Of a DNA stretch of 64,000 bases, positions 3,015 through 60,306 are shown in pieces. The DNA is from a virus. The stretch lies in IMG/VR virus record IMGVR_UViG_3300031760_000017; one strand, written 5' to 3'. The translations under genes were made by a program, and so were the position numbers. A model generated the notes under the pieces. The model saw only the letters and a list, made by a program, of their open reading frames with translations. It searched no databases and was not told the origin of the DNA. Each line of letters begins with the position of its first letter. The first letter of the stretch is position 1.

Positions 3015-3026
3015 CTTCTATATATA

Positions 3027-3059
3027 AGGCACGCAGAAATGCGTGCCTTTCTTTTTTTT
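3027..3059 (+). terminator. intrinsic terminator
   Basis: Hairpin AAGGCACGC-agaaat-GCGTGCCTT followed by a T-run. Confidence 0.75.
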
Positions 3060-3101
3060 ATATAAAGAAAAAATCTTAGAACCTGGTTAAATGGTTTTTT
3101 A

Positions 3102-3170
3102 AATGGCTCGGCACGCAGACACTCGTATCTCAGAAACGAAAAGCTGGTTTGGATTTTTTATTTTGCATTT
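3102..3170 (+). repeat. conserved ~68-nt element, copy A (second copy at 60203-60270)
   Basis: AATGGCTCGGCACGCAGACACTCGTA...TTTGGATTTTTTATTTTGCATTT aligns with copy B. There are scattered substitutions and one 1-nt indel. Confidence 0.6.
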
Positions 3171-3261
3171 CTTGGGCAGGAATAAATAAATTAATTTTTC
3201 TAATTTTAATATATAATTAGTGAAAAAATAATTTTTAGCAGGAGGAGCATTATAAAAAACT

Positions 3262-3747
3262 ATGGCAGTATTATTAGAACATTATTCTTTATCTGAAATT
3301 TTTATGTTTACTGTCCTTTTAGCTTTAGCTATAAAAAGTTTAGTATCTTTTTTTGATTGGGCCTATACTTATCTTAAAAAATTCTTTAACAAAGAATATA
3401 AAGAGACTGATGAAAAAAAGGACTTAGAAAAAAGATTACAACATGGCAGCTGGGTTATGACAACTTTACAAACAAATCAAGATATAACTGATCAATATTT
3501 AAAAGAGCTATCTGCAAAGATAGATATGTTAATAGATTCAGATAAAGATGCTATAAAATCTTACATAACAAGCAAGCATCATTACTTTTGTTATTAGGTT
3601 GGATGGATTGATGATTTTAGTTTAGATTGTTTAGAAAAACGTTATTTGCATTATGCAAAAGAAGGAGGAAACTCTTTTATTGAAGGTTTTATGAATGATT
3701 TAAGAAATTTACCAAAAAAACCGCCAACAAATAGTGATAAACATTAA
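3262..3747 (+). CDS. hypothetical membrane protein (N-terminal TM helix), 161 aa with TAG=Gln
   Basis: GGAGGAG RBS. Track ORF 3262-3597 continues in frame through TAG (3598-3600) to TAA at 3745-3747. Confidence 0.55.
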
Positions 3748-3778
3748 AAAATAAAAAGAGATAAAAGGAGTGTTATAA

Positions 3779-5752
3779 GTGGCTTATTTATCAGGTTTAT
3801 ATCCCCCAGTTATTCCAGATGGGTATCCAGCAATGTTACAATAGGGGGAAACAATAGATTCTAAAAAATATTATAAAATATATTTCTCAATACCCAAATT
3901 AAATTCAATTAATAGCATAGATTTAAGATTTATGCAAATATCAATTAGAAAACAATCTACAAATATTTCTGTTTTAGATAAAACTAAATATTTTTCTGAA
4001 ATATTATTAACAGAAGGTTTTTTAGATAATACTAAATCATCAAATGATTATAATTATTATATATTAGTTCCATTAACTGTTTTTGAAAATAATAAGCTTA
4101 ATATAAATTAGTTATATAAAATTCAATTAAGATTTTGTGCAAAAAATTCTAGTATTCAAGAACCAACTTCTTATAGCGGTTCTGCGCTCTCTGTTTGGTT
4201 AAATACATATAATAATAGATTTTCATAGTGGTCAAGAGTTAGCTTGATAAAAGTAATATCAAAACCTACTTTAAATATAAATGGATTAAATGCTGCTTCT
4301 AACTCTCGAATTACTACATCTTTATTTGAAGTTATTGGCTTATTAAGTTTTACTAATTCATCTGAAAGTGAAATTCTAAAAAGTTATCAAATATTTTTAA
4401 AAGATGCTAGTAAAAAAATAATTTTACATCAATCTGATATTATTTATTCAAATAATCTTAATAATCCTAATTAGATTAATTATGCTATTCCATATGAAAT
4501 GTCAGATAGATTAAATTATTATATTACTATACATTATACTACTAATAATCTATATGAAAATACTGTTAATTATCAAATTAATACATATTTTACAAACACT
4601 ACTATAAATCCTCTAAATGTATTTTCTGCAATAGGGAATGAAGAAGATGGATATATAAAACTTACTATAAAAAGCAAGGGCGTTAATTTATATTCTAACA
4701 ATAATATAAAACCATTAGAATTAATTATTAAAAGATCTTCTTCAAAAACTAATTTTACTATATGGGAAGATTGGAAGATTTTTTCTTATACTGAAAAGTA
4801 TATAGATAAATAGTTTTATGATATGACAATAGAAAGCGGAATTTGGTACAAATATGGCTTGCAAATGCGCGGGACTGATTCAAATGGGCGTATAGTAAGA
4901 ACTAATATGCAGTCAATGAACAAACCTGCAATGTGTATTTTTGACAATATGTATTTAACAACAAAAGATAAACAACTAAAAATAAAATTTAACCCCGCAA
5001 TTAGCCAATTAAAATATAATGTATTAGAATCTCAACAAAATACTTTAGGAAGTCAATTTCCATATATTACTAGAAATGGAAATAATTATTATAGAACTTT
5101 TTCTATTGGCGGAATTATATCTGCTTTATCTGAAATTTTACATGAAGATAACTTATATATTTAGACAAGTTTTGAAACTAAAAACTATTGGGAAAAACCT
5201 TATTCTGTTGCGGGAGTTCTTAATAAAAAAGATATGTGGGGCGCTCCTTAGGAAGATATAGATTATAAGAAAAATGGTAATTCTGCAATTATCTTAGAAG
5301 GAGATCTTAATCAAAATACTGAATCAATTTTTGATAGTGTAGGTTTAAATGAGGATGATAATTTAATTCATAATACATAGATTGCGGCAAGCAATAATAC
5401 TTAGATGTTTTCTACAAAAAATAAAAGATTATTTGCTACAGATTCAGAAATTTATAATTAGCAATAGGAATTATATGAAGAATATAATTCAGAACATGGT
5501 ATAAATAAATATCAAGATTTTATTTATGAAAGAGAATTTAGAAAATTAGTTTTTGATTTTTTAAATTCAAATGAAATTAAATTATTCCGTTCAACACAAG
5601 AAGGTAATATCTTAATCAGATTAATTGGAATAAATTTTGAACCAGTTGAAGGAACAAATAGATTAGTTTATTCATTTTCCGCAACCGCAGTTGAAATAGG
5701 GGAAGATACTATTAGTAATTATAAAAAATATAATATTTTAAAGGAGGATTAA
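3779..5752 (+). CDS. tail/baseplate structural protein, 657 aa with TAG=Gln
   Basis: GTG start 8 nt after AAAGGAG. Track ORFs 4244, 4499 and 4823 share its frame. Hand translation shows only TAG interruptions and ends at TAA 5750-5752. Confidence 0.6.
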
Positions 5753-5755
5753 TAT

Positions 5756-7672
5756 ATGAAACATAATTTTCCATATTTACAAGATTCCTCTTTTTTAAAA
5801 TAGTTTGATTAGTTACAATTAAAAGAAAAATTCGTTAAAATTATTGTTTTAAATTTTAAAGAATAGCCAATAGCAGAAATACAAGGGCGTGTAACTGGCG
5901 GCAGTATAAATGTAGATGGATCTTCTAGTATGCGGCGAACCGCAAATCTGTCTGCTATTGTTAAATAGTAGGATTATAATATTTTAGATGTAAGAAATTT
6001 ATTATCAATTAATAAGAAAATAGAAATATTAATTGGCTTTACAAATTTAACTAATAAATATTCTGACTTTCCAATTATTTGGTTCCCTGAGGGAGTATAT
6101 TTAATTTTTTCGCCAAATATTACTCAAAGTGAGACTGGAATTAATATCTCTTTAACTTTAAGGGATAAAATGACGTTATTGAATGGAGAATGCGGCGGTT
6201 CATTTCCCGCATCAGTTACTTTTCATTAGATTGAAGATATTGATGAAAATGGAAATGTAATTATTTCTAATCCAACTATATATCAAATTATTGTTGAATT
6301 AGTAAATCATTTTGGTGAAATCCCGCTGGATAAAATTATTATAAGTGATGTTGACACTAGAATTAAACAAACAGTTCAATGGATTGGTTCTTACCCAGTT
6401 TATTTTGCTAAACATAATAATGAGTTACAAGGTTAGTTTTCTACTAATTATTTTTAGCTCAGACAAACTTTTTCAGATAATGAAATCAAAACATATAATT
6501 ATGGAGATGCTGTTGGATATGTATTAACCGATTTTATTTATCCTGGTGAATTAATAGGAAATGCTGGAGAAAATGTTGTTACTATTTTAGATAAAATAAA
6601 AAATTTACTTGGTAATTTTGAATATTTTTTTGATACAGAAGGTAATTTTCATTTTCAAGAAGTTAAAAATTATCTAAATACAACTTATCCTACAACTTTA
6701 GAAAAAGATCGAGGAAATTTAGATAATTATCTAGTAGACTATGTTGATGGCGCATCTGTATATAGTTTTGAAGATAACAAAATTATTTCATCTATTTCAG
6801 TAGCCCCTTCTTATGAACAAATTAAAAATGATTTTATTGTGTGGGGTAAAAGAACTGAATTAACTGGTGCGGAAGTTCCAATAAGGTATCATTTAGCTAT
6901 TGATAAATGTCCACGAAACAATATATTGCATCAAGGTTTTTATGAATATGTTGATCCATAGGATGATTTAACTAAATATACAAAAAAAGTAATTACTGGA
7001 CAAAACTCAATTAATATTACTTCAAGAGATTATAGAACTGAATTATATTTACAAGGAGTTGAATCTGAAAATACAGCTACCGCAAGTAATTATTATTTTA
7101 TTGAATTAAAGAATTAGTGGCCGAAAATTTATAATATAAAATAGGGAACTTTTTTAGAAGAGTCTTTTGATAATTTAGATTATTTTTTAGATATTATAGA
7201 TACTTCCGCATAGATAGGAAAATTTAGTGTTTAGAATATTGGAAGACGGACAGTAGTTATAAACGATGATTCTATTAATTGTATTTTTGAACCATAGTAT
7301 CCAGAAGTTGTTTTTATAAAAACAGTGGATCAAGATGATCAAGAGTCAAATCCTATAAGAATTGAATGTGAAAATAAAAAAATAGATTATACACAGATAA
7401 AACCAGAAATGTTTAATTTTCTTTTTCAAGGAAATCCTTATAAGTCTGCCTATGAAGAAATAAGGACAGAATTATATCAATATACAACATATAATGAACA
7501 AATAAATTTATCTATTTTACCAATTTATTATTTTGAACCAAATACAAGAATTACTGTAAAGAACAATTAGATTGGGATAGGTGGAGATTATATGATTAAC
7601 AGTTTTTCAATACCTCTTGATATAAATGGCATAATGAATTTAACTTGTATAAAAACATTAGAAAGGATATAA
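5756..7672 (+). CDS. tail/baseplate structural protein, 638 aa with TAG=Gln
   Basis: ATG 5756 is preceded by AAGGAGG. It is in frame with track ORF 7325-7570. Contains QGRVTGGSINVDGSSSMRRTANLS, a phage minor-tail-like motif. Only TAG interrupts the frame, and TAA lies at 7670-7672. Confidence 0.6.
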
Positions 7673-7696
7673 GGTAAATGATTTTTCATTTACCTT
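7671..7696. terminator. bidirectional hairpin between convergent genes
   Basis: AAGGTAAATGA-tttt-TCATTTACCTT. It overlaps the stop codons of the plus-strand gene (7672) and the minus-strand integrase (7690). Confidence 0.55.
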
Positions 7697-8703
7697 ATAT
7701 ATTTTTGATGATCTTGTTTAACTTTTTCATTTGAAACATGTGCATAATGTAAAGTAGTTTCAAGCTAAGAATGTCCTAATACACTTTGAATAGATTCAAT
7801 TGGCATGCCTCTGTTTATCGCAGTTGTTGCCATAGTATATCTAAAACGATGTGGAATAATATCTTCAACACCGCTATTCTAAGTTAATTGATGCAATCTT
7901 TTTCTAACTCCTGAAGTACTTAATCTATTATAAGGGAATCTTAAAGACACAAAAAGAGCTTCATTATTATCTTTTCTTTCATTTATATAGTTTTTTATAC
8001 TAACTACAGTTTTTGCATCTATATAAACAGTTCTCCATTTTCCACCTTTTCCGCAAACAATAATTTCCCTCTTATTTAAATCAACATCTTTAATATTTAA
8101 ACCTACACATTCAGAAATTCTAATACCTGATGAAATTAGTAAATCTACAATAGCAATATCTCTATTTGTTTTACAAGCTCTTCTTATCTATTCTATATCT
8201 ATATCAGTGTACTATTGCCTTGGTTTTACATTAGACTTCTATCTTCTTATTCTTACTGAAGGATCTTTCTAAATATACTCTTCTTCATATAGCCATTTAA
8301 AAAAAGATCGTATAATACTTTTTCTTTGATTTAATGTTTCAGTACTTAATGGTTTACCAGTTTTTTTATTTTTAGATATATATTGAATATATAAACGAAG
8401 ATGATTAACAGTTATTTTTTCTAAAGGTAAACTTAAATAGTTTAACATATCCTATAAACACATTTTATATTGTTCTTTACTTTTTTCTGACATTCTACCC
8501 TATTGCTCTTTTGCCGCCATATAAATATAATAAGCTTCTGGTAATTGATAATTTTCATCTTTTAAATCTACAAAATTTGGTGTGATATTATAATTAAGAG
8601 AATAAGTATTTAATATATTTTTAATTTTATCTATATCCTATCTTTTAAAAAACGGCTATATTTTTAAACAAAATCCTTCAACAAAAGATAAGTTTGAAGA
8701 CAT
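7690..8703 (-). CDS. tyrosine recombinase/integrase (XerC/D-like), 337 aa with TAG=Gln
   Basis: Hand translation gives ...SSGIRISE..., HRFRYTMATT, LGHS-TAG-LETTLHYAHV (catalytic R, HxxR, H and Y). About 10 in-frame TAGs, with no TAA/TGA until 7692-7690. Confidence 0.8.
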
Positions 8704-8734
8704 TAATTAATTCTCCTTTTTTTTAATATTAAAA

Positions 8735-8770
8735 AAAGGAGGACTATATTTAAATATATAGTCCTCCTTT
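8735..8770 (-). terminator. 15-bp perfect hairpin after the tail-fibre operon
   Basis: AAAGGAGGACTATAT-ttaaat-ATATAGTCCTCCTTT, flanked by A/T runs. Confidence 0.6.
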
Positions 8771-8912
8771 ACTCTTTATTTAATTTTATTTTAATTCCAT
8801 AAATAGATAACTTAAATAAAATACTATTTTATTTTTTATTTATTCACTATAATTTCATATCTTCTGTGCTTAATTAAAGTTTTTATTTAAGATCTCTAAA
8901 TGGGCGTTTAGT

Positions 8913-10181
8913 TTACTCACCTAAGATTGTGCCATCGACATACTCAAGACGTTTTACAACAAAATCACGTATCTGCAAAATGTTGTTGTCCGTCTTTCCG
9001 GGGATCGTAATAAAAGCCCCGTCTGCTGTTGTCTCTGCATAATCCTCGGCATAAAGATATGGCGGAATCTGGCTTATGAACTTGTCGAACTCTCCGAGAA
9101 TATTTCCGGCAGAAAGTACGGTTTCTCTAAGTTCCTGATACCTTGCTATTACATCGCTCTGGAAAAGATTCCAAATACGATAATGCAGGTAGTTGTCCTC
9201 TTGAAACTGCGTATATCCGTTATAATTCTCTTGGAAGATTGTGTTATAAGGACGCCATGTTACTTCTTCCTGTCGCACAAGTCCGGTCATTCCCCACGTA
9301 GAATCCAAATCGTACAAACCTGTGTACCACTGTTCTGCATCATACGTAAAAAATGTCTGATTCTTTGCGATCAGGTCAATGGCACATATAGCCCTTACGA
9401 ATATATGCATATCAATGAGCGATTGCAGGTCAATCTTTGAATCTATCCCGGCTATAAACTGCGCATCTGTTGAATTACATATAAACGCCAGTACGGAAGT
9501 CCAACTATCGGCAATGACTGTTGGCATTTCATCGTGAAGTTCATCAGACCATTTTCCATTCATTGTCGGCTGTCTGAAAAACATCGTGTTATCATCAGCA
9601 AGCCCATCTGTCTGAATAATGCAGTTTGTTTCCTCGTCAGAATCCACACCGTACATACCGTCTTTCGGTAAATTCCATGTATAAAGACCATAGTATACAC
9701 CGTTGTGGTAGACCTTGACCGGGAATCCATCAATCGCAAGATTGCTCTTTCTCAGCGTAGCAGGTAGGGATGCAAAATTACTCCTTGACCTGACTGCCTG
9801 TGACCAAAGACGGGCATTAACAATATTTCTTGCATGGCTGTGGTCTATCCAGTTTGCTTTAAGGACAAACTTATTTCTAGGTTTATCCCAATCTCTGAAA
9901 AGACGTTTGCTCTTTGATTTTCTTGCGCTGTCTGTAAAAAGATTTATCGTGTAATTTTTCTTTGGATAGTAGGCAGATGAATCTCCTTGTACTTTAGCTG
10001 TAGCGTAATCCGTGAATGATTCCGTTGCGCTCTTGTATGTTATCTTAATGTTGCTCTTGCCTTCTGTCTTTGTCGCATACAGTTCACCCTCGATGGACAC
10101 AACTGGAATATCACCGTCATTGGGTTCATATCCGCCTACGTTTACAATATTTCCATGATAATCATAAATATAAGCCATCAT
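8913..10181 (-). CDS. CotH-family (kinase-like) protein, probable tail-fibre or receptor-binding accessory
   Basis: Intact 422-aa ORF in the standard code. LKANWIDHSHARNIVNARLW and the following segments resemble CotH. G+C-richer and TAG-free. Confidence 0.6.
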   Translation of the reverse strand: MMAYIYDYHGNIVNVGGYEPNDGDIPVVSIEGELYATKTEGKSNIKITYKSATESFTDYATAKVQGDSSAYYPKKNYTINLFTDSARKSKSKRLFRDWDKPRNKFVLKANWIDHSHARNIVNARLWSQAVRSRSNFASLPATLRKSNLAIDGFPVKVYHNGVYYGLYTWNLPKDGMYGVDSDEETNCIIQTDGLADDNTMFFRQPTMNGKWSDELHDEMPTVIADSWTSVLAFICNSTDAQFIAGIDSKIDLQSLIDMHIFVRAICAIDLIAKNQTFFTYDAEQWYTGLYDLDSTWGMTGLVRQEEVTWRPYNTIFQENYNGYTQFQEDNYLHYRIWNLFQSDVIARYQELRETVLSAGNILGEFDKFISQIPPYLYAEDYAETTADGAFITIPGKTDNNILQIRDFVVKRLEYVDGTILGE

Positions 10182-10189
10182 ATCACCCC

Positions 10190-11014
10190 TTAAACAGTAA
10201 TATTCGTTCCGACAAGTTCATTGATTTCCTGATTGGATAATGCAACTTTATAGATTTTATAGAAATCTATTGTGCCTGACCACGGTTTAACTGTGCCACT
10301 TTCAACTATGCCAATCTTATAATTACCTACAGCGTCAGCGGTACTCGTTATAATGTCCTCTAAAGAGTAAACAAGGTCATCATCAACATAACTATGTATC
10401 AATAAGTGCTTTGAAAAGTTTCTTACTACGATAATTATATCGTGCGCAACATCCATACTAAAAGGTGTAGAGTTACCTCCAAGGTTTTTAAATGTTGTCC
10501 GTGTCATAATTTGTTCATTAGATACGGTTGTTGCAATTCTCAAGCCTGTAACGACACTTCCATTTAATCTGGATTTTGCGCTTGCGTCCAGTAGGAATGA
10601 AGCCTCAGTGGTAGGCTCCCACGTCCCCTTTATCAGGATCGTAAAATCCTCGTTATCCATATCATTTCTTGCAGGTACTCCGGTATCGACTGTAAATGCA
10701 CTCATATCTGTTCCATACGGCAACTCATAAATAACCCGGCTGTCTACACTCATGCTGAACAATGCATCTTTCAGGGCTTTGCCGTACTTCTCACCGTCCT
10801 CGGTATCCCAATATACATGCTCAAAACAGTCTATAAGGGCTGTCTTTACATTATCCGGCATAATGCTATATGCGGGAATTACAAGACCGTCTGAGCCGAT
10901 AGCAAGCACCCTCCCGGCATTTATAGCTCCCTGCTGTTTGTCAACTTTCTGACCATTTGAAATAGCTTCAATAAGTGCGTCAACCTTTGCACCTTCCCAA
11001 ATATTAACTGCCAT
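10190..11014 (-). CDS. LamG/concanavalin-like domain tail protein
   Basis: Intact 274-aa ORF. The C-terminal ...IDFYKIYKVALSNQEINEL is typical of Laminin_G_3-type domains. G+C-richer and TAG-free. Confidence 0.5.
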   Translation of the reverse strand: MAVNIWEGAKVDALIEAISNGQKVDKQQGAINAGRVLAIGSDGLVIPAYSIMPDNVKTALIDCFEHVYWDTEDGEKYGKALKDALFSMSVDSRVIYELPYGTDMSAFTVDTGVPARNDMDNEDFTILIKGTWEPTTEASFLLDASAKSRLNGSVVTGLRIATTVSNEQIMTRTTFKNLGGNSTPFSMDVAHDIIIVVRNFSKHLLIHSYVDDDLVYSLEDIITSTADAVGNYKIGIVESGTVKPWSGTIDFYKIYKVALSNQEINELVGTNITV

Positions 11015-12087
11015 TATACACCTCCGTTATATGTAACCGTTGTTTCGAGTGTTGTAAGATTGGTTACGATTGTCAGTGATTCTCCTGTGTTCAGCGTTCG
11101 GACTTCTGTTATTGTTCCAGTACCATAAGTAAAAGCGTCCGTTCTTATAGCTACCGAATTACGACTGTGAGTAACCTGAGAAACCTTCCCATCGGTGAAC
11201 GTATATGCCTGAGTTGTATCAGGAACATCATCACTAAGAAGCATTAACTTATGTGTTAAATCCCCGGTAGTGCTGACCCATGCATTCCATGTAGAAGTAA
11301 ATGCACTATATGTTCTAACCCATACTTCTATGCTTGTTCTTCCCGACTTGTAAGTATAGGTCAACCGCTGAAACGTCCTACCTACATTGTTTCCAAAAAC
11401 TTCATGCCAAACTTCCAAAATTCCATGCTCACTATCGGCAGTAGGTTTGTGAAGATATGAATTATCAGTGTGAAGCATATACACACCGGGAGTCAATACG
11501 GTATTCAAGTCCGTTCCGTCAGCAAGCCTTTGAGGTTCTGTTAATGCACCTAAATCAGCCTTTATTTCCGTAAACTCATCTCCAACAGCTTTCGCATCAG
11601 CTGCAGTTCCAGTTATAGAAAGCGTATCATCTACTTCAATTTGTTTAGCATCAATAGCAGCATTTACTTCGGCTTTCGTATAAGTATTTGATGCGTTTGC
11701 TTTCTTATTTAACTCTGTTTTAACTGCCAACGCATCTGCAGCGGCACCTTCAATAGTTAAAGTTTTATCAACAATAACCGCACTTCCTACAGGATTTACA
11801 TTATCATCTAACCAATCAGTAGTATCCGCACTAATTTGTTTTCTTAAAAAATCATTTAATCTTGAATTAAATTCATTAGTGCTAATTTTATCTCCATCCA
11901 ATTCATCAATCTGATGTTGGAGATTTCCTTTTCCAGAAGAAGAAATATCGACACTTCCTAAAGCATCTAATAAAGTATGATTATTTTCATCCCACTAAAC
12001 ATTTTGGACATTCACACTAATAGGAATTTCTCCAGTATAAGTGCCATTCTTTTGCTTTATTTTTATAGCCTTTATTTTATCAGCCAT
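11014..12087 (-). CDS. tail fibre protein (mosaic: AT-rich N-terminus with one TAG, G+C-richer TAG-free C-terminus)
   Basis: ATG 12087 follows AAGGAGG and is in frame with track ORF 11014-11901 (offset 186). TAG at 11997-11995 (NV-Q-WDENNH). Repeated G(A/T)AADA(L/K)AV fibre motifs. Confidence 0.7.
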
Positions 12088-12106
12088 AAAACTTCTTCCT
12101 CCTTTC

Positions 12107-12424
12107 TTAAACATAATTTTCTAATTTATTAAAAATTTTATTAGTCACATATATAATTTCATCTCTATAAGTTGAAATTAAATCCGCAACTAACTCCTAT
12201 TGTTCAATAGTAAGATTTACATTATAAGAAAACATTGCAGCATGTGTAATTTCATGACATAAAACTTTCCTTAATAGTTTACCAGTTAGCGTCTCATTTA
12301 TGTATATAGTTCTAGTCAAATTATCACATGCACCTATTGAAAAATCTCCAGACTTTCTTCTTAAAAGAGGAAAGTCTGGAGATACAAAAGCAAGTTTCCA
12401 ATATGTGTTATTTATTAAAAACAT
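12107..12424 (-). CDS. HExxH zinc-metalloprotease-like protein (ImmA/IrrE- or SprT-like)
   Basis: LCHEITHAAMF motif. Track ORF 12197-12424 continues through TAG to TAA at 12109-12107. Confidence 0.45.
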
Positions 12425-12449
12425 TAAGAAATTTTGTTTGCTAGCGTTG

Positions 12450-12611
12450 TCATTTTTTGACGTAAGGTTTATTACCCATATAATTATTATATGGGGTGTT
12501 GCTCAATAACATGTTATTGCTCCCATAAGGAAATTGTACTTGCGGTTGCCCCATCATTCCGCTCATAAGCTGAGGCTGTTGCAAATAGTTAGAATTATTG
12601 TAATTTGCCAT
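12450..12611 (-). CDS. small Q/N/P-rich protein (53 aa)
   Basis: GGAGG RBS, then MANYNNSNYLQQPQLMSGMMGQPQVQFPYG..., ending with TGA at 12452-12450. Confidence 0.4.
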   Translation of the reverse strand: MANYNNSNYLQQPQLMSGMMGQPQVQFPYGSNNMLLSNTPYNNYMGNKPYVKK

Positions 12612-12757
12612 TACTTTCCTCCAATCGAGATCTCTTTTTACTTTTTGAATTATTTAACAGTTACTAAATTTTCGCGAAAAAAGAAAGAGTTTTTTCTTTC
12701 CACATATATATAAAAATTTCTACTATTAAATTAATTACATTTGACCAAAAAATTGAG

Positions 12758-12786
12758 TTGACAAAAATAAAAATTTTTTGTATAAT
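12758..12786 (+). promoter_or_regulatory. sigma70-type promoter (TTGACA-N17-TATAAT)
   Basis: -35 at 12758-12763 and -10 at 12781-12786, with TG immediately upstream of the -10. Confidence 0.65.
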
Positions 12787-12810
12787 ACAGATAAGAAAGA
12801 GGTGTAATTT

Positions 12811-13299
12811 ATGAAAATATTATCATTAGATTTATCAACAAAATCTTCTGGTTGGTGTGTAGGAGAAGATGGAGTTATAAAATCTCACGGATGCATTACC
12901 GCATCATCAAAAGATGTGATTCAAAGAATTATAAAGATGCGGAGTTAGTTATCTGCAATTATATAGAAAAATAAAATAGATAAAATTGTTATGGAATAGG
13001 TACGACCTGACTTTAATTCACATACGAGTAAGGTATTAATGTGGCTTCAAGCAGCAATTGCAATTGCCGCACACTAGATTAATCCGAAGATTTAGTTTTA
13101 GTTCATCGGACCTAGTGAATGGCGTGCCGCATTAAAATTTAAGCAAGGTCGCGGAGTAAAAAGAGATAATTTAAAATCACAAGATATACAATATGTTAAA
13201 GATAAATATAGCACAGATGTAAATGATGACTAGGCAGACGCAATATGTCTTTTTGACGCTTATTCAGAAAAATTTGATAATGAAATAAATTGGGAATAA
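12811..13299 (+). CDS. RuvC-like Holliday-junction resolvase, 162 aa with TAG=Gln
   Basis: ILSLDLSTKSSGW, VME-TAG-VRP and DD-TAG-ADAICLFDAY match the RuvC acidic tetrad context. Seven in-frame TAGs. Ends at TAA 13297-13299. Confidence 0.7.
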
Positions 13300-13331
13300 A
13301 AAAGACTAATCTTATTCAAGATTAGTCTTTT
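13300..13331. terminator. bidirectional intrinsic terminator
   Basis: AAAAGACTAATCTT-attc-AAGATTAGTCTTTT lies between convergent genes. Confidence 0.7.
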
Positions 13332-13339
13332 TTATTTTA

Positions 13340-13576
13340 TTATTCTTCTTCTTTTTTATCCTATTCTTTTAAATCATCTAAAGGAATCTTATTAACCTTT
13401 CTAGATTTCATAGATTGAACAGTATAATCATTCTAAATCTTCTGTTTTTTTACTATTTTCCAAATCTATTGAAATAAAAAGAATTTAATTAAAAAAGGAA
13501 GCTATGATTTATTAAACTCCTAAATAATTTTCTATTGAAAATTATAACACATTAAATTATAATCATTTTCATTCAT
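13340..13576 (-). CDS. hypothetical protein, 78 aa with TAG=Gln
   Basis: AAGAGG RBS, then MNENDYNLMCYNF..., six in-frame TAGs, and TAA at 13342-13340. Confidence 0.4.
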
Positions 13577-13603
13577 TTTTAATACCTCTTATCTATAATT
13601 ATA

Positions 13604-16600
13604 TCAATCTATATAACCAACCCATCCTCTATACGGACTACCATATGAATGTCCATCATACCATCTTCCAAGAGCATAACCCCATTCAAAATAAAGAATC
13701 CGAGGAGAACTTGAATCATTTGGATCTGCATGCTCGATCCATATATCTGTAACAATCTGTCCCCAAGAAACTTTTTGATTATCATAAGTAAAATAATCAG
13801 CTTCTAATTCTTCAGTTGAAAGATAATCTGATCTAATTTGTGAAGCAGTCAAATAATCTGATCTAATTTGTGAAGCAGTTAGATAATTTGCATTAAGAGT
13901 TTGAGTAGAAACATAATTTGCTTTAACTTGATTAAATTCTGCTTTATCAGCATATAATGTATCACATTTTATAATCATCTTATCAGTCAAACTTCCAGAA
14001 TAATAACTGTTGGTCATATCACTAGCCATAACAGTATTAGGATCTAACCAAGAGTCACCTGAGCCTCCTATAGTAAAACCATATCCATTTAAGGACTGTC
14101 CACTCATAACCTATCCATAAATTTTCCCAAAATAAGCATCTCCATTTGCGCTAATAGACCAAGAAGGACCAGATATACTACCCTCATAATCAAGAGAAAG
14201 ATTACCAGCTTTTAAATCATAAGTATTAATATTCCATCCGCCTATCTGTCCGGAGCTTGCATTTATCTCGCCTGATAAATTTACATTAGATGCTGTTAGA
14301 TTACCATTATTATCAACAGAAAATCTAGAACCAAGAGCAATTTCATCAGTTCCAATATAAACGCTTCTATTATTTCCTTTTGTTCCAAAAGAAATTGAAC
14401 TTAAATTAGCTGTAAAATCTCCTTTAATAGTCCAATGATTTCCAGATAAATACCCCATTTCTAAAGTCGCAGGTTTTATTGTTCCATTATCTGAATATCT
14501 ATTAGTAAATCTAAAAGAATTTCCTAAAGATAAGCCAAGAGGAGATAAATGAAAACCATCAGCTGTATTAGTTAATTCTGTTTTATTTCCACTATAAATA
14601 CGACTACGATCAGCTTCTAAAGTAATTTTTTGACTATTTAAAGAATTACTTTCAGTACCAATTAATTTAGTACCATTTATAGTCCAACCGCCAATTTGAC
14701 CAGATGTTGCGGTAATTTTCCCACTTAAATCTGTATTAGTAGCAACTAAATTTCCATTAGAATCTACTTTAAAACGTCCTGAACCATATCTTATTTCAGG
14801 TTTTGTTAAATCAATTAATAAACCTTGACCTTTTTCATTACTAGATGTATAATTAGATGGTAAGCCATTTTCATTATAATTTTTCCAAAAATTACCACTA
14901 TATAATAAAGCATGACTAGTACTTGGATCTATTACAATTTGCCCATTGTTAGCTTTTCCAAATAACGCAGAACCATTTTCACTATTTAAAAAGAAAGTTC
15001 TATCACCTTTATTATATCCTAATAATCCAATGTCAGGAGCAGTCTTATCTGGATTTTTAACTTCACCCATTAAAACTCCAGTAAAACTATTATCATTTTC
15101 TTTTTTACCTGCGCCCATTTGCGGAGCTAAGATATAACCACCCTTATCATCTAATTGAATACTGTTGCCATCCCAAGCGTTAATATGAGCTAATCCATAT
15201 TTATTTAATAAGAAATGAATAGGAATATGAATTCTAGCAATAACCTAATTATTATTAACACTTTTAACAGTACATACTAAAGCATTATTAACACACTAGC
15301 CGCTATACCTTGAAGCTGGTCGACATATGCATTGATTCTTTTGTAAATTTTTAGTATAATAACTCTAAGTTAATAACTCTAAATCATGAGAATCGTTATT
15401 ATAAGGAAACTAATCATACTAACCTACTTCAATCTAATGTGTCTGTATTATATTTATAACATCACCATTAACTGAATAACTAAAATTAACTGCATGACTT
15501 CCAGAAACTAATGATATATCTTCCCATTTATTATTTATTTTTTCTTTAATAATAAATTCAAAAGGTTTAGAATTGTCATATTGAGGAGATAAACCATCAG
15601 AACTATACATGACATATCTAAATCCAGTATAATCTTTTAATTCAATTCTATAATTATCATTTTTAACCCATGCAGTTGCAATAGGCAATGTACTATAATA
15701 TGAGTGCTGATTATAAGTTATTGTGCATTTTAGAATATCTGCTAATGTTTGCGTAAAAGTAGTGTCTATTGGATGTGCTGTTGTATTCACATATGAAATA
15801 AGTCCAGTATTAGCATTTACAATATTAAAAGAACTTTCATCAGTAAAATTTGTTTTATAAAAATTCTTTAACATGTTCCAAGTTACAGAACTAGGACTAG
15901 TTACACCATCTTTTGGATTTGCGGCAGTTGAAGTTCCTTCCCAAATCAAATCTCCACTTTGCCATAGCTGAGCTTTAAATAAGGTTTTTCCAACATTAAA
16001 TCCTGCAGTTTGCTACTATCCAGTTCCGCTTGCCGCAAAATTAATAATATAAGAATTAGAATCTCCTATTGCTGTTAAAGTAGGGTAAATAGGTAATATT
16101 TTTGCTGTACTATTTGGAACAATTTTCACAATATATTGGGTCCCATTTGTACCAGGTTCTCCCTATTTTACAAAAGTAAAGTTAGTTTTTGCAACTAAAT
16201 TAATCTACTTATAAGTTACAAATAATTCAATCTGATTATTTAATTTTTTTACATCATATTTTTGTGCAATATCATAAACTAAAGTATCTAAATTTGAATA
16301 ATATCTATAACCTTCCTATTCAACTGCCCATGTTTTATTGTTTTTGTCAACTAATAAAGTATTTTCAATAGGAATTTTCCAAGTAACTTGTCTTTTCTTT
16401 ATATCATCAGTAATATCATTCCCTAAATTATCATATACCTTAAAAGTTAAAGCTAAAATCTATTGCGGATCATCTAAACTTTTACTATTAGGCGCAATAC
16501 CATTCTAATTATATTTATATGATGCAGAGCCATTTTCAATAATTAGTGAATATATATTTTCCGCCTATAAAGAATTACTTAAAGTAATTGAAGCTGTTCC

Positions 16601-18295
16601 TATATAATTATGATTTAAATCTTCTACCGTACATTTAAATATAGCAAATCCATCTATTGCATTAACTTGTAAATCATAAATTTTATTTTTACTTACTCTT
16701 TGTGTATATTTAAAATTAGAAAGAGTAGTTTCATAATTATTTAGTTCTTGTTGTGCTTCATTTTTAAATCTAGTTCCAGCTTGAATACTATTTTTTAATG
16801 ACTGCAAAGCATTATAAGTAGTTGTATAGTTATTATTTAATTCAGTCGTTGTTTCTAAAGCTTCTAATCCACAGTTATTATTTTGCCAAGCCCAATAGTA
16901 ATTATAATTTTGTATATTTTCAACTCCATTTACTTTACAAGTTAATGTTGGATGTCCAATATCATAATAAAATTGAGTGCCACTATCTGACTATATTATA
17001 ATATCTGCCGCATTAGCTTGTAAATTTTGAATTGTGATTTCCTTAGAAATAACTGTATTATCATATAAAACCGCAACTTTTAATTTATTTTCTCTTGCAG
17101 TTGCATCTTCTCGATAAACTATATAAGTACTATCTCCAGGCACCCATTCTATTTGAGGAGCTTGAGTTGCAGTTCCAGGTGAAATAATATTTTTTTCATT
17201 TACACATTTCCAACCGCGTCCTAAATGTTGATTATAATACTAACTATTTGCAAAAATACCAACATTTTCTTTTCCCCAATAGAAAGATAAATTTTGAGAA
17301 TCTGATACTAATTTTCCTTTTATTCTTACCTGTGCGGTAACTATTAATTCTTCTTTTGGAGAAGGATTTGTAGCTTGTTTAAAGAAAATACCTTTTGGAG
17401 TATAAAATGAAATAGATATTCCATTATTTTCTTCATCGCTTTTTCTTATAGCACCTAAAATTTCAACAGAAGAAATAAAGATATTTACTCCATTATCTGT
17501 TGATCTTAAAGGATAATGCTAAGGTGTCCCGGATGCTGAATTAGGAAAATCCTAGCAAAAGATTTCAATAGAATCAATTCTAACAAAGTTTTCTCCATCT
17601 ATTTCAAAAATCTAATATTGTCTAGTATTATGTTCAAATCTATAAGGATTACCTGTCATATTATCTTCATCAAGCGTATAGCTTTTAATTATCTATTTAG
17701 AATTTCCATTAGATTCTAAATTAGAATTATCATTAAATACTAAATTAAAAGTTATACCATAATGACCTTGATATTGTTCCTATAATGGAATAGTATTTCT
17801 TATAGTCATTCCTGCAATTAAAGAAGATGCTTTTTTAATATATTGATTTAAAGCATCATTATCTAATTTTAGCGGTGATGAGCTAACTCCATATTTATAA
17901 ATAACATAACTATATTTCTTATATTTTGTAGCTAAATAATAAATGCCGCTTGTTGTAACGCAATTCTTACCTAATATATCATATGCCTACTATCCAACCG
18001 CTTCAGAAACATAGTTAATTCCAAGTTTCTAAGTTGTACCAAGAATAGTTTTATCTTTGCTCATATCATTTCCTGGAACTAAAATATAAACATATGCACC
18101 TTTAGAATAAGTAATATCTGCCGAACCCGCATACGCAAAAAAAGTTGTATCTTGATAACGACATTTATATTTTCCTATTGTCGCATCTTCACAAGAAATA
18201 ATTTGAGCTTGAATAGTTTTATCATATCCAGCTTTTTTTATTGAATTATTAGTTAATAATTCAATCGCGTCTAAAATTTTCTAATTAACGCCCAT
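13604..18295 (-). CDS. giant tail hub/fibre protein, 1563 aa with TAG=Gln
   Basis: Track ORFs at 16807, 15949, 15118 and 14107 all share the frame of ATG 18295. Hand translation of 15118-15434 and other stretches shows only TAG interruptions. The N-terminus is OB-fold-like (GAYVYILVPGNDMSKDKTILG). The C-terminus has repeated SGQIGGW(T/N)IN motifs. Confidence 0.65.
13823..13890 (-). repeat. 30-nt tandem repeat (about 2.3 copies) inside the giant tail gene
   Basis: ATAATCTGATCTAATTTGTGAAGCAGT(C/T)A(A/G) occurs twice plus a partial copy. It encodes YLTASQIRSD repeats. Confidence 0.8.
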
Positions 18296-18383
18296 CTTTT
18301 ATCTCCTTATATCTCTTGTCTTTTATATTATAACATAAATTTTTTATTTCTTCAAACCAGTTTAAAGAATATTATGTTAAATT

Positions 18384-18548
18384 TCATATTTTTCTTGTTT
18401 TTAGAACTCCATCATAATTATATCTAGTTATCTAAAAAAAATCTTGTTTTGAAATTTTTTCTTCTTTAACTAAATTTATCATATCTATGAGTTCATAAGC
18501 TCCACAATTCCATTTTTCTTGAATTTTAATTAAATTAAATTCTTTCAT
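18384..18548 (-). CDS. hypothetical small protein (54 aa)
   Basis: GGAGAAATAA then ATG. MKEFNLIKIQEKWNCGAYELIDM..., with one TAG, ending at TGA 18386-18384. Confidence 0.4.
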
Positions 18549-18611
18549 TTATTTCTCCTTTTAAACAATAAAATAAGGAAATAGTATTAAAATACTATTT
18601 CCTTATTATTT

Positions 18612-21600
18612 TTATTTTCTTCTCATAGCACGTTGAGCCGCTAAATTAACTAAATCATTTAAAGCTTCTTCAATCTATTGTTTACTATTTACAGCAGGGA
18701 AAGATGCTGAAATCTGAACTTTTTGATCAATAACATCACTAAGAGTTGAAGCTGAATTTAAAGAAAATCTATCAGTAGAGATTTTCCCAATTTTATTTAA
18801 TAAAGATGTTCCTATATTTTTTGTAATAGATCTTAAAATAGAAACACTATTTAAAATATTTCTAGTATCTTCTGAATTTAAAACTAATTCTTTTTCATCC
18901 AATATTGCTAAACGACCTTGTTTTGAATTCCAACTTCCTGTATATCCACCTGTATCATATCTTTTTATTTTTCTATTATAAAGTCCAACAGGATCATTTA
19001 TATTCATATGAAGAACGTCATGATTATCTAAATGTCTAAGATCTCCAACTCTATTGCTATTATAATCATAGACTCCATTATCAGCTCCTCTTCCCCATCT
19101 ATAATGATTTTCTGAGCCATTAGGATAATATGTTTCAGATTCAGGCTCTTCATAAGAAACAGTATCTTGCATTCTGTTTAAAGCATCTTGATAGCGGTCA
19201 GCAGCAGACTACATTCTACTAGCATTAGCTTCTGCATTACTTGCTAAAGCATCTAAAGCCGCTTGAGCTTCATTACTATAATCCCAATCAGCATCCGCCA
19301 TTCGAATCCTCATATCTTCATAAGTCTGCGCAGTTGCCTAAGCTGATGCGGCAGCCTATTGCTAAGCTTGAACGAAATCATATAATTGAGTAACTGCATT
19401 TGCCGCAGCTGTATAAACAGAATCATAATCATAAACAAGAGCTTGAGCAGCATCTCTTAAATCTTGAATAGCAGATAATTCATCAGCCATTCTATTGATT
19501 AAATCATCATTAACTTCAATTAATCCAGTAAATTCATCTATTAAATTATCTACTCCATTTTGAACATCATTTAAATCTATACCAGCAGTATTAGCTAAAC
19601 TATCAAGTTCTTGCTAATAATTAAAAGTAGCCTCATGAATCTCTTCAAAAGCTTCTTGACAAGATGGTATAAAACCGCCCTATCCCGCAACTTTATCAGA
19701 CATCTATTGAATACCGCTATTCCATGCTGGAACTAAATCGCCCATTAGAATACCTTTTTCATCATCTGTCATCTTTTGATAATTTGCAACATCTATGTTA
19801 TAAATTGCGGCAATCTCATTAAAAGCAGATTCAGTTAGATTTTTTCTAATATCAGAATTTTGTTGAGCTTTATTATTAATATATTCTCCATATTGCTCTT
19901 TTAATAAAGCTAGCTATCTAACTCTTTCTTCTTCTGTTAAAGAAGTATCAGTAACTATATCTTTATATTTCTATTGGAAATCTCTCCAAGCAGAAAGCAT
20001 TTCCTATAAATTATTTTGATAACGCTATTTATCAAAATTATATAATTCATTTTGAGCACTAATTAATCCTTGTTCAGCATCAAAAATACCATTTTGATCA
20101 GCAACATATTGATAAGAATAGTTACCTTGTGAATCACGTTTTAATCTTAAAGAAGTTTTACTTGCTCTTATATCTTCTAAAGCAATTCGTGCTTGTTCAA
20201 TTTGAAGCATCTTCTACGCTCTATCTACATCATATTGAGTAATCTTCTATTTATTCTTTAAATTATCTAATTGCTCATCCATAACTTTCTTTAAAGCTTG
20301 TTGATGTTTCAATTGATTTGGATTATTTAATGATTTTTGGAACTTATTTTGTAAATCCTGAAGAGCAAAAGCAGCATTAATTGTATCTAAGTATTCATCC
20401 GCATTTTTATTCATTAAATCCCATTCATCACTTAAATAATCAGTACCTTTTCCGTCTGTAATTTTCTTATCTAGCTAATCAAAAATTTTATCAATAGCAT
20501 TACTGTATTTTTCACTGATTGTTTTTGCGGAAGTTTCTATTAAAGAATTGATTTCCTTAATAGCGTTTTTATAATTTTCTTCAAATTGTTTTGCCGCATT
20601 AGTATCTCCCGCTAATAAAGCTTGCTACCATTCTTGTTTCCAAAAAGCAATCTATTTTCTTAAAGCATCTATTTGATTATTTTGATTTTTTTCTAATTCA
20701 GCATAATAATTTTCCATAGCTTCATAATTTTCATCACCATAAAGCAATTTTAATAAATCCATATCATGCTAAATTAAATCATTAATAAAATCATAATCAT
20801 CTTGTTGTTTCTCAAATTGTTTAGAAATATCATCAATAGTATCTAAATAAGCTTTATCAATATCCGCAATTAAATCTTCAATATCCTACATTTGTTTCAT
20901 TAATTCGGATAAATCACTTTTTAAATCCGCCATAGCTTGTGCTTTATTATTACCATAAATTGCGGAAGTTCCTTTTTTATCTATATCTTCTATTTCTTTA
21001 CGAGTATTTAATAATTGCTATGTTAATTTTTGAACAGTACCTATTGAACCATTTATATTAAAGAAAGAATCTAAATCCATAACATTTTTAGTAGCATCTT
21101 TAAAAATCTTATCGAAATCAGTATCTTTCATAAAATCAGTTTTATTAATTACATTTCTTACAAACTAATTCCAATCTTTTGCAGCTTCGCCCATCTATAA
21201 TCGAATTTCAAGCTACATTCTAAATTTTTTAATATTAATTTCAATCTACTTTTGGGCAATCTATTCAATCTAATCTACTATATCTTCCATGCTATTTCTT
21301 AAAGAATCATAATCTTTAATTTTAGCTTGAGTATTTTTTAAATCTTCTTGAGCAGATTGCACAGCTTTATCATAAGCTGAAATTTGTTTATCTAATCCTT
21401 CTTTATAAGTTTTATCAGTAGAAGCATTATAAGATTCAATTAAACTATTCTATTCATTTATTAATCTATTAACCGCATCTTGTTTAGCTTGTAATATAGA
21501 CATATAATCATTTATATTTCCATATTCATCAAAAGTAACTCCTAATGAATTTAGAATTTGCTGTTGATTAGCTAAATCTTGTCTTTGAAGCTATTGCTTT

Positions 21601-27263: not shown

Positions 27264-27375
27264 CCTTTTATCTCCTTTTTATATATTTAAAATCATGTGA
27301 TAAAAAATCTTCTTCTATATATAATATAAAAAAATGACATTTTTGATTATCATAACTCGACCATATACTTTTTTC

Positions 27376-58216: not shown

Positions 58217-58426
58217 ATGAACGCTATTGATTTTAATTATCAAAGACTTATGAATCATATTGAAGGATATATGGCTACATATAATATGACACAGCCACCG
58301 ATTTTATTAATGAGTAATGATACATATAAAATTTTTACTGAAAAAAAATTAACATGTTTTGATTATGATTGTAGAGTTGCAATTGATAATTCACTTCCTT
58401 TTAGGGAGGTTGATTTAGTATCATGA
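58217..58426 (+). CDS. hypothetical protein (69 aa)
   Basis: AAAGGAG RBS and an intact ORF. Confidence 0.45.
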   Translation: MNAIDFNYQRLMNHIEGYMATYNMTQPPILLMSNDTYKIFTEKKLTCFDYDCRVAIDNSLPFREVDLVS

Positions 58427-60204
58427 GATATTAGTTAATAAACAAACCAAATGAAAATTTTTCAACAATACAACAAATATTATATAATAGAGGAATTGCA
58501 GAAAATAAAATTTCACATTATATAAATTTATCAGATTAGGATATTAATTCATTTTTATTATTAGGAGAAGAAAATTTGAAAGAAGCCTTATCTCGTATTT
58601 TACATGCAATTACTCTTAAGAAAAAGACTTTAATAATTGTAGACTGCGATTGTGATGGTTATACATCTGCCGCATTATTAATTAATTATTTATATAAAAT
58701 ATTTCCAACTTGGGTTGAAAGCTATGTAGACTGGTATATGCATGATAGTAAACAACATGGATTAAGTGATTGTATTGATTTTATTTTAGAAAGACAATAT
58801 GAATTAATACTTTGTCCCGATTCAAGTAGTAATGATTATGATAAACATCAATTATTAGCTGAAAATAATATTGATGTTGTTGTTTTAGACCATCATTTAG
58901 CTGATCATATTAGTCCAAATGCGGTAATTGTTAATAATCAACTTTCTGATTATCCAAATAAAGAATTATCAGGAGTTGGAATAGTATGGCAATTTTGTCG
59001 ATATATAGATTCAATATTAGAAGTTAATTATGCAGATGATTTTCTCGATCTTGTTGCTCTTGGAAATTGCGGTGATATGATGTCATTACGGTCTTTTGAA
59101 ACTCGTTATCTAATTACAAAAGGATTCAAAAAATAGAATATTAAAAATCCTTTTATTGACTACATGATTGATAAGAACTCATTTCCTTTATCAAAAGCAG
59201 ATTATGTATCATCAAATCCTGATATGGGATGCACATCTATGGGCGCCGCATTTTTTATTGTGCCATTTGTTAATGCTATTACTAGAAGTGGAACAATAGA
59301 ATAGAAAAACTTACTTTTTAATTCTATGTTAAATCATAAAGCTTTTACAGAAGTTATTTCAAACAAGCGTGGACATAAATTAGGTTAGAAAGAAAAATTA
59401 ATTCTACAAGCAATTAGAACAGTTACGAATGTTAAAAATAGACAAACAAGAGCAGAAGATGCAGGATTAACTATGTTAGAAAAAATGATTGAAACTAACC
59501 ATATGCTTAATCATAAAATTCTTTTATTTTTGTTAGAACCTAATAAAATTGATCCTGAAATTCGTGGTTTAATTGCAAATAAATTTATGGCAAAATATCA
59601 AAGACCTTGTTGTTTATTAACTAAAACTAATAGAAATGGTAAAGAAACTTATGAAGGTTCTATGCGTGGATATACAAAAACTGGGATTGATAGTTTTAAA
59701 GAAGTACTTGAACAATGTCCAGGAGTTTTATATGTAGAAGGACATGACAATGCGGCAGGACTTGGTATAGAAGCAAATCATGTAAGTGATTTTCTTTATA
59801 AAATTGATTAGCTTCTTGAAGATGTCTCTGTTGAACCTATTTATAGGATTGATTATAATTTTAATGAAAAAGAAAATAACAATCAGCGCATTTTAGATAT
59901 TGCAGATATGAATGACTATTGGGGTCAAGATGTAGATAGAGCTTATGTAAATATTAATTTCAAAGTTACTGATTCTAATTTTAAAGTTATGAAAAGTAAT
60001 ACTTTAAAATTTAGTTTACCTAACGGATTATCTATTATTAAATTTAATGGAACTGAAGAAGAAATTACTAGATTTACAACAACAGGGTATCTAGAAGTAA
60101 ACGCTATTTGTAAATGCAATAAAAATTAGTGGAATGGTTGCGTCTATCCGCAACTTATTATGTAGGATTTTGAAATTGTGGATTCTGCTAAATACTACTT
60201 TTAA
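58423..60204 (+). CDS. DHH/DHHA1 phosphoesterase (RecJ-like exonuclease), 593 aa with TAG=Gln
   Basis: The ATG overlaps the upstream TGA (ATGA). Track ORFs 58576, 59473 and 59908 share its frame. Motifs IIVDCDCDG, LILCPDSS, VVLDHHL and EGHDNAAG. TAG at codon 4. TAA at 60202-60204. Confidence 0.7.
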
Positions 60205-60270
60205 TGGCTCGGCGCGCAAACACCCGTACCCAGGAAGCAAAAATGCATTTGGATTTTTTTATTTGCATTT
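60203..60270 (+). repeat. conserved ~68-nt element, copy B
   Basis: AATGGCTCGGCGCGCAAACACCCGTA...TTTGGATTTTTTTATTTGCATTT aligns with 3102-3170. Confidence 0.6.
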
Positions 60271-60277
60271 TTGCTTT

Positions 60278-60306
60278 TTGATTTTTTTATAAAAATTTGT
60301 TATAAT
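60278..60306 (+). promoter_or_regulatory. sigma70-type promoter (TTGATT-N17-TATAAT)
   Basis: -35 at 60278-60283 and -10 at 60301-60306. Confidence 0.6.

Follow-up and report, generated by a model that had tools for sequence, protein, structure and literature searches.

The 64,000-nt window of viral DNA analysed here, the whole stretch taken from IMG/VR virus record IMGVR_UViG_3300031760_000017, carries two copies of a conserved non-coding motif that belongs to a group of uncultured gut and rumen phages and marks the boundaries of their gene blocks. The motif is previously undescribed; its general kind is familiar. It is conserved, does not encode protein, keeps its position and orientation, and has no RNA structure in the clade of the window. 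The best explanation for it, which we put forward tentatively, is a binding site for a regulator that is read at the level of DNA and lies upstream of promoters.

Both copies lie on the plus strand about 57 kb apart, at 3102-3170 (copy A) and 60203-60270 (copy B), as an earlier note on this DNA had placed them. The 26-nt 5' core AATGGCTCGGCRCGCARACACYCGTA matched only 3102-3127 and 60203-60228 when up to three mismatches were allowed on both strands of the window, and none of 100 dinucleotide-preserving shuffles contained a match. The copies are identical at 23 of the 26 core positions and at 75% of the 40 nt of their 3' parts (3131-3170 versus 60231-60270). Their pairwise alignment contains the single-nucleotide indel that had been described, located after GAAGC, together with a T6A/T7A swap, and the bases downstream of the indel are conserved, also as described. 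Zero-mismatch matches to AAAA-N5-TTTGGA-N-TTTTT were found at the two copies only in the window. Profile and motif searches of the window revealed no third copy, nor was an inverted partner copy found there. The G+C content of the genome is about 30%, and the 21-nt GC box of the element is conspicuous against it. The parts of the two copies and the neighbouring signals are as follows.

3026..3059, plus strand: intrinsic terminator of the DUF2828 gene (terminator scan; gene by Pfam), context and not part of the repeat.
3074..3170, plus strand: copy A, whole element with upstream block, GC box, spacer and A/T tracts (nhmmer 3075-3167, E 9.5e-22; covariance model (CM) 3090-3166, 75 bits; alignment of relatives).
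3074..3101, plus strand: upstream block of copy A, TCTTAGAACCTGGTTAAATGGTTTTTTA, conserved in A-type relatives with the consensus TAGAACCTGATnAATAGATCT.
3105..3125, plus strand: GC box of copy A, GGCTCGGCACGCAGACACTCG (CGG..CG....CA..CG invariant among 16 aligned sequences).
3134..3159, plus strand: A-tract, TTTGGA and T6 tract of copy A (invariant A45-46, A50-53, T60, T65-70).
3171..3217, plus strand: late-type promoter-like block CTTGGGCAGGAATAAATAA...TAATTTTAATATATAAT downstream of copy A, conserved in A-type relatives.
60177..60270, plus strand: copy B, whole element (nhmmer 60177-60264, E 5.4e-19; CM 60191-60267, 80 bits).
60206..60226, plus strand: GC box of copy B, GGCTCGGCGCGCAAACACCCG (core match and alignment).
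60237..60279, plus strand: A/U-rich hairpin of copy B, GCAAAAATGCA ... TGCATTTTTGC, then T5 (MFE -22.5 kcal/mol, z -2.6; z -5.2).
60278..60306, plus strand: sigma70-like promoter TTGATT-17-TATAAT with TG, downstream of copy B and not part of the repeat.

In the clade of the window, the consensus consists of five parts: the upstream block, the GC box, a spacer, AA-N2-AAAA, and TTTrGA followed by T6-7. No sigma70-like promoter was recognised in the upstream block of copy A, and the first ~27 nt of copy B are the 3' end of the RecJ-like ORF. The 21-nt GC box follows G(G/A)CTCGGnnCGCAGACACyCG and contains CNCGYA twice, 10 nt (about one helical turn) apart. The lag-10 self-similarity of the element is weak (0.34 versus 0.27 in shuffles), and that at lag 2 is stronger. 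The window copies show neither dyad symmetry nor iterons; partial dyads of the form TCTGCG-N5-CGCAGA are present in the relatives L033 and L120 only. The spacer of 8-9 nt is variable in sequence and fixed in length. In more distant members, the start reads ATCTGC(T/C)(C/T)GG and the 3' half is retained.

When 148 fetched loci were searched by profile, and viral and metagenome contigs by pattern, about 35 distinct family members were obtained, each in the orientation of the gene upstream of it. Their hosts are related phage contigs of ~140 kb with in-frame TAG codons, and the nearest relatives are IMG/VR contigs of ~133-148 kb; one of these, contig 3300021400_001206 of 139,781 bp, has copy B at about 10.6 kb and copy A at about 91 kb. 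Near-invariant positions persist across lineages in which a flanking protein is only 50-60% identical. The earlier note had named absence of the element from any relative as one result that would speak against it; the element is, on the contrary, widely conserved. By the pattern used, no copy was found among 185,579 bacterial genome representatives, Rfam gave no family match at the gathering score or at E <= 10, and GenBank phages contain no close annotated relative. The best DUF2828 hits among GenBank phages, at ~41% identity, are in Bacillus Tsamsa-like siphophages, and there the element is absent.

Copy A lies 56 nt downstream of the terminator of the DUF2828 gene, formed by AAGGCACGCAGAAATGCGTGCCTT and a T-run at 3026-3049. 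The earlier placement of the copy after this terminator is confirmed; the gene, called Ro60-like in the earlier note, matches Pfam DUF2828 and DUF7788 and not TROVE. The A-type position, 10-55 nt after the terminator of the DUF2828 gene, is found directly after that gene in more than 15 lineages; some A-type lineages have an HNH gene inserted behind the DUF2828 gene, and the element then follows the HNH gene. Many DUF2828 loci have no element. Within the copy A box, GGCACGCAGA (3110-3119) is identical over 10 nt to the 5' arm of the terminator (3029-3038). The repetition that had been pointed out is thus real, but it is confined to the closest clade (L003, L141, L036) and absent in other clades, and we rejected a functional tie between box and terminator arm as clade-specific. 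Downstream of the A-type element come CTTGGkCAnnAATAAATAA-N~20-TTTTAATATATAAT, then a Shine-Dalgarno sequence, then the gene that opens a tail-type operon. We regard the late-type block at 3171..3217 as a separate unit because it recurs at 36670-36712, before a holin-like ORF (36764-37036), without a GC box. The motif common to both sites reads CTTGGrCAnnAwTAAATAAATTAwTwTTTCnAATTTTtAATAT and is a candidate late-promoter class. In one clade, a c-di-GMP-I riboswitch takes the place of the element after the DUF2828 gene (L024 7559-7632, 61.6 bits).

Copy B starts at the TAA of the RecJ-like ORF (58414-60204, TAATG), a DHH/DHHA1/RecJ_OB protein by Pfam, 52 nt ahead of TTGATT-17-TATAAT at 60278-60306, and is followed by genes for a gp30.3-family protein and an AAA_30/UvrD_C_2 helicase (Pfam). 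The overlap with the RecJ-like stop codon ahead of a promoter, reported previously, was thereby reproduced. This promoter does not belong to the repeat, since it is one of at least 15 of its kind in the window. The hairpin at 60237..60279 carries TTTGGAT7 in its loop and is the only structure behind the RecJ-like gene that looks like a terminator. Three lineages have the element in the B-type position, where it coincides with the RecJ-like stop and a sigma70-like promoter follows; in L087 and L090, it is more diverged and lies in front of the gp30.3 gene. The L120/L137 lineage has it between a tRNA array and a tail-fibre-like gene, and a ROOL RNA (L120 5569-6169, 273 bits) is embedded in this array, which comprises more than 20 genes. 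The element directly follows a terminator or stop codon, and in almost all lineages a co-oriented promoter-like site lies 50-100 bp downstream, the exceptions being L064 and L056, with a convergent gene downstream, and L033, with a divergent gene upstream. The centre of the box is ~100 bp from the next TATAAT in copy A and ~88 bp in copy B.

Based on these findings, we infer that the element is read as DNA, that a protein binds it and that binding may affect the promoters. It would serve as a cis-acting non-coding regulatory module at operon boundaries and be read mainly as double-stranded DNA. The GC box would be bound by a sequence-specific phage or host protein, the fixed-length spacer and the A5/TTTrGA/T6 tract would connect the box to the next promoter, and occupancy would co-regulate two units, namely the TAG-rich tail/baseplate-type operon after copy A and the gp30.3-like/helicase block after copy B. 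Supporting a function of the DNA itself, the invariant columns are the CG-containing positions (CGG-N2-CG-N4-CA-N2-CG), and the element is constant in its placement between the preceding terminator or stop and the promoter-like site that follows. Two further observations argue against an independent transcript: the element has no recognised promoter of its own, and in most cases there is a strong terminator 10-55 nt upstream. However, the promoters downstream of A and B differ in class, and at least 15 similar sigma70-like promoters as well as the late-type block at 36670 lack the box. In L064 and L056, the convergent gene downstream leaves nothing there to regulate. No candidate protein that binds the box was identified. 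A sigma70, sigma54 or ECF-type promoter within the element and a T7/Syn5-type phage-polymerase promoter were rejected, as no consensus fits, and no phage RNA polymerase was seen in the window.

In its role, the element appears to resemble upstream regulator sites, attenuators or PeSL cassettes. Among upstream regulator sites, the lambda CII sites are direct repeats TTGC-N6-TTGC, and the Ogr/Delta sites are located at the late promoters of P2. The likeness to them consists in a short upstream box at few promoters per genome, in half-sites about one helical turn apart and in a fixed orientation. In contrast to such sites, the box of the element does not overlap -35 to -55 but lies ~90-100 bp upstream, serves two promoter classes and has no known cognate protein.

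The main rival to binding as DNA, possible and only somewhat less favoured, is that the element functions as an RNA signal on a plus-strand transcript, which would be the tail of the upstream unit or arise by read-through of the terminator. The unpaired GC box would then be a platform for a protein or another RNA, and the A-tract, TTTrGA and U-tract would form a weak terminator hairpin; the outcome would be factor-dependent termination or antitermination as in an attenuator, 3'-end formation, or a ~70-nt 3'-UTR-derived sRNA with a GC-rich seed. Indeed, a hairpin and U-tract end the element in several subfamilies whose stem sequences differ (copy B with L085 and L109, L087 with GACCAAGA/TCTTGGTC, L090, L041 and L064), and the B-type hairpin shows a compensatory change from ATGCA/TGCAT to ATGCG/CGCAT in L085 and L109. 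In copy B, the stem of 12-17 bp is A/U-rich, is followed by T5 and reaches -22 to -30 kcal/mol; it failed the G-C criterion of the terminator scan. No stable stem precedes the T6 of copy A, which in this respect differs from a classical intrinsic terminator. Across the alignment, the putative U-tract terminator helix was no better than in column shuffles, its 3' arm being conserved while its 5' arm simply varies.

A closing helix around the box was also considered. It is paired to 75%, slid controls to 24-47%, and its covariation score is attained in only 3 of 500 shuffles, a statistic that gives weak support because the helix was derived from the same, related sequences. In the A-type clade the helix covaries (TTAGA/TCTAA versus TCAGA/TCTGA, with a G:U in L142), and AAAC...GTTTGGA of copy A becomes AAAT...ATTTGGA in L003. 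In the A-type copies, L009 and the second copy of L148, the 3' arm of the closing helix can instead pair with TTTrGA, so that the two pairings are mutually exclusive. According to these predicted folds, such alternative pairing before a U tract could be an attenuator-like arrangement, in which the helix of copy A would be very weak. Diverged 5' domains fold as clean hairpins (L148 8891-8983, L033, L074 and L063; z -2.5 to -3.4), that of L148 reading UCUUGA-GCGGCC-UGGAUUC-GGUCGC-AUU-UCAAGA; however, the hairpins of diverged members score about equally on both strands. Retention of the element in L064 and L056, where no co-directional gene lies downstream, would also fit an RNA signal.

Other structural tests spoke against a folded RNA. 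RNAalifold predicted no pairs for 16 sequences, the whole-element z of A-type copies ranged from 0 to +1.8, and copy A folded worse than shuffles (z +1.7 to +2.2). For the 5' domain, z was +2.2 in copy A, +0.7 in copy B and +0.58 on average in the clade, and neither a structure of the copy A GC box nor a stable aptamer-like fold in the element was predicted. A covariance model with helices brought no consistent gain over a sequence-only model for the most diverged members (30.1 versus 33.2 bits for L041, 31.0 versus 34.5 for L064). In addition, there is no promoter upstream, and most lineages have a strong terminator just upstream. No conserved complementary target was found: an sRNA with a target in the window was rejected, as the best duplex (497-525, -27 to -28 kcal/mol) maps to a variable loop, and L003, the nearest relative, differs there.

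A more specific version of an RNA function, which we consider improbable, is a factor-dependent gate in which a multimeric phage protein on the nascent RNA picks between the closing helix and the U-tract hairpin. In this improbable scheme, the protein would recognise the unpaired GC box with its CG-containing motifs every ~5-10 nt and control read-through from a standard-code "RNA island" into the late genes with in-frame TAG; the island, with the same low probability, would comprise the tRNA array, ROOL-type RNAs and the DUF2828/Ro60-like gene. If true, late transcription would be coupled to the genetic-code switch. Among known systems, lambda nut and HK022 put sites occur twice per phage genome. 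The element is like these and other attenuators or antiterminators (BglG/SacY RAT, PyrR, TRAP) in its length of ~70 nt, its two copies heading transcription units, its unpaired recognition sequence and the possible alternative pairings that overlap the U-tract hairpin. It differs from them in that it has no upstream promoter, that promoters lie downstream instead, that the candidate terminator helix is very weak in copy A and that it contains no boxA/boxB or RAT consensus.

Several known RNA families were compared with the element and rejected. Bacterial and phage Y RNAs (YrlA, Yrl1/2) are encoded beside Ro60 genes, and their hallmarks are a GNCGAA or CGAA motif and a tRNA-like domain (PMC4201824, PMC12135203), besides a long stem of the 5' and 3' ends around an internal loop. 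The element, too, is small and non-coding and in many lineages adjoins a gene that has been called Ro60-like, although that gene matches DUF2828 and not TROVE. It has no terminal stem, conserved CGAA/GNCGAA motif or tRNA-like domain. MFE folds of both copies and 24 relatives contain no 5'-3' terminal stem, CGAA, present in copy A and L085 only, does not form a conserved column, and Rfam gave no Y RNA or YrlA hit at E <= 10. Copies also occur away from the gene, since B-type and L120-type copies are not beside a DUF2828 gene. The box of diverged members, AUCUGCUCGGAGCGCAG, presumably resembles the 5' strand of animal Y RNAs. A better-folding candidate than the element lies upstream, at 1036-1162 between tRNA-Gly and tRNA-Arg, where a long 5'-3' stem encloses an internal domain (-33.8 kcal/mol, z -2.8); on the strength of this predicted fold, the region upstream of the DUF2828 gene could encode a tRNA-like or Y-RNA-like RNA. 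The Bacillus phages Thrax3 and BcoS-136 have a common short element of their own 3' of the DUF2828 gene (L145 3290-3345; L147 3050-3110), which reads GGTGGTCGGGAAG...AAGTCAAGGGCATAyGC..TTGGCTTATT and closes with a terminator-like hairpin; at the 5' end it is reminiscent of the Ro60-binding motif GGUCCGA, and by this analogy it could be a Y-like RNA. An HDV-like theta ribozyme, which folds as a nested double pseudoknot with its cleavage site abutting a tRNA 3' end (PMC10879173), was rejected because inspection revealed neither a downstream complement to the 5' part of the box nor P1/P2 complementarity, no tRNA adjoins and no HDV-type Rfam hit was obtained. A tRNA or tmRNA fragment was rejected as well, ARAGORN finding only four tRNAs, at 396-1395.

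We consider it unlikely that the cassette is mainly a homology patch or preferred breakpoint between exchangeable modules, with regulation secondary, although such a recombination linker would be compatible with the other explanations. PeSL cassettes of T4-type phages, which combine an early promoter with a stem-loop and occur in many copies, offer a precedent (PMC2839356, PMC4122927). The likeness consists in a repeated, conserved intergenic cassette at transcription boundaries and module-swap junctions (PMC2839356, PMC4122927), and by analogy with PeSL we read the breakpoints in the box as a mosaic junction. In L068, L075 and L148, the element breaks off after GCAGACACC; in place of the operon that usually follows, there is a reversed tail-fibre module of higher G+C content. 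The contigs of L129 and L130, products of different assemblies, share exactly the same first base, the C of CGG in the box, and the ends of four further contigs lie within 200 nt of the box; however, contig ends may reflect strain heterogeneity or the nearby tRNA array. The junction shared by the three truncated loci, which lie on two contigs, is 15 nt beyond this contig-start base (L068 8797, L075 5760, L148 2725). In L074, a different 5' half is joined to a typical 3' half, and the neighbours of the element vary by lineage: upstream there may be DUF2828, RecJ, an HNH insert or a tRNA array, and the genes on the downstream side are diverse. Unlike PeSLs, the element has an extra GC box, its adjacent promoters are outside the repeat, and there are only two copies in 64 kb, whereas PeSLs are present many times per genome. 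Furthermore, homology alone leaves the near-invariant positions unexplained, given flanking proteins that are only 50-60% identical. The split or inverted right half of the truncated element was looked for in the L068 contig and not found; a diverged full second copy is located 6 kb downstream. We also rejected a tyrosine-recombinase core (att/dif), which has inverted binding arms around an overlap region of 6-8 bp, as the window copies have no dyad and no inverted partner, and a prophage att site, as the bacterial genome representatives contain no copy.

Another type of DNA transaction site is improbable as well, be it a replication origin with an initiator box and an A/T-rich unwinding region, present twice per genome as oriL/oriR of SPP1, or a recognition and cleavage site for terminase. 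The GC-rich box adjoins an A/T-rich region, and copy B lies among replication genes, with the RecJ-like DHH/DHHA1 gene upstream and the AAA_30/UvrD_C_2 helicase downstream; an origin is nevertheless at odds with the lack of iterons and with copy A, which is not near replication or terminase genes. Two contigs starting at the same nucleotide of the box, together with a junction 15 nt on, are as expected for staggered cuts. Two co-oriented cos/pac sites 57 kb apart would, however, cut the genome into pieces, and a left-side scan revealed no viral contig that ends at GGCT.

Two small proteins of 25-28 aa are the least credible reading and very improbable. The ORFs noticed earlier in the copies are present (MARHADTRISETKSWFGFFILHFLGRNK, 28 aa, beginning MARHADTR; MARRANTRTQEAKMHLDFFICIFAF, 25 aa, beginning MARRANTR), the frame is open for at least 18 codons in most copies, and a CAG of copy B in the window is TAG in L001, which would be synonymous if TAG encoded Gln; we treat this difference as coincidence. 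We rejected a micropeptide because only 4 of 23 distinct copies have ATG at the start (ACG in 10, GCG in 4, ACT in 3 and ACA in 2), codon periodicity is lacking (0.51, 0.69 and 0.65 bits at codon positions 1, 2 and 3), and 1-nt indels, both between the window copies and in L085/L109, shift the frame while the bases downstream are still conserved. ACG or ACA stands in place of ATG even in the copies closest to A (L003, L141) and to B (L085, L109), and copies without ATG offer no in-frame start with a ribosome-binding site. No Shine-Dalgarno sequence precedes copy A, though genuine genes in the window have strong ones. The relatives therefore bear out the earlier preference for a function at the RNA or DNA level, with ATG lost in 19 of 23 copies. 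Its broad list of a regulator binding site, a processing or antitermination signal and a recombination site could be narrowed only in part, with a regulator site on DNA at its head.

The element sits where the tRNA/DUF2828 region gives way to the late genes. Since the long ORFs of the window are intact only with TAG read-through, TAG serves as an amino-acid codon. In-frame TAG codons number 11 and 15 in the two ORFs after copy A and 71 in an ORF of 2888 aa on the minus strand; the TAG-bearing ORFs span 3256-7672, 7690-27278 (minus strand) and 37086-60204. Every gene of the window with in-frame TAG lies between copies A and B, and none is found in the DUF2828 gene left of A or in the genes right of B. 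Judged by eye from the translations, the 2888-aa ORF resembles a tape-measure protein and a 1564-aa ORF a tail protein. TAG-recoding phages are thought to time late genes by code change, and none of these phages has been cultured. The element is among the few strongly conserved non-coding sequences in this large TAG-reading clade. Should it prove to be a regulator site or an RNA gate, it would provide a handle on late-gene timing, a search motif and a bait for the binding factor; it also marks the sites at which tail-fibre and other modules are exchanged between these genomes. Should it be no more than a boundary or homology cassette, it would be an ordinary feature that is still useful for annotation.

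Further features of the window were recorded alongside. At least 15 near-consensus sigma70-like promoters (TTGAyw-17-TGnTATAAT) are located at 1397, 15331, 29884, 30706, 33306, 35047, 46627, 48680, 51556, 52170, 54328, 58153, 60278, 63104 and 63296, and this promoter family implies that host RNA polymerase transcribes most units. The probable packaging and head genes start near 27.4 kb. A tyrosine recombinase gene with Phage_integrase and SAM-like N-terminal domains and 10 in-frame TAG codons (7690-8706, minus strand) sits between the plus-strand tail-type operon and the minus-strand tail genes. A ~420-nt non-coding insert of higher G+C content (497-915), which directly follows a TATAAT within the tRNA cluster, is absent in L036, has a variable hairpin loop in L003 and gives a weak, sub-threshold fluoride-riboswitch hit in Rfam; it could be a non-coding RNA or a mobile insert. 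Sub-threshold tRNA-like hits were obtained at 274-321 and 326-387. Finally, an 84-nt repeat (42769-42852 and 49804-49887, 73% identical) falls in two ORFs that have, by eye, the common motif GIYKITNLLNG...YIG...R-W, and from this motif they are probably two GIY-YIG homing-endonuclease genes.
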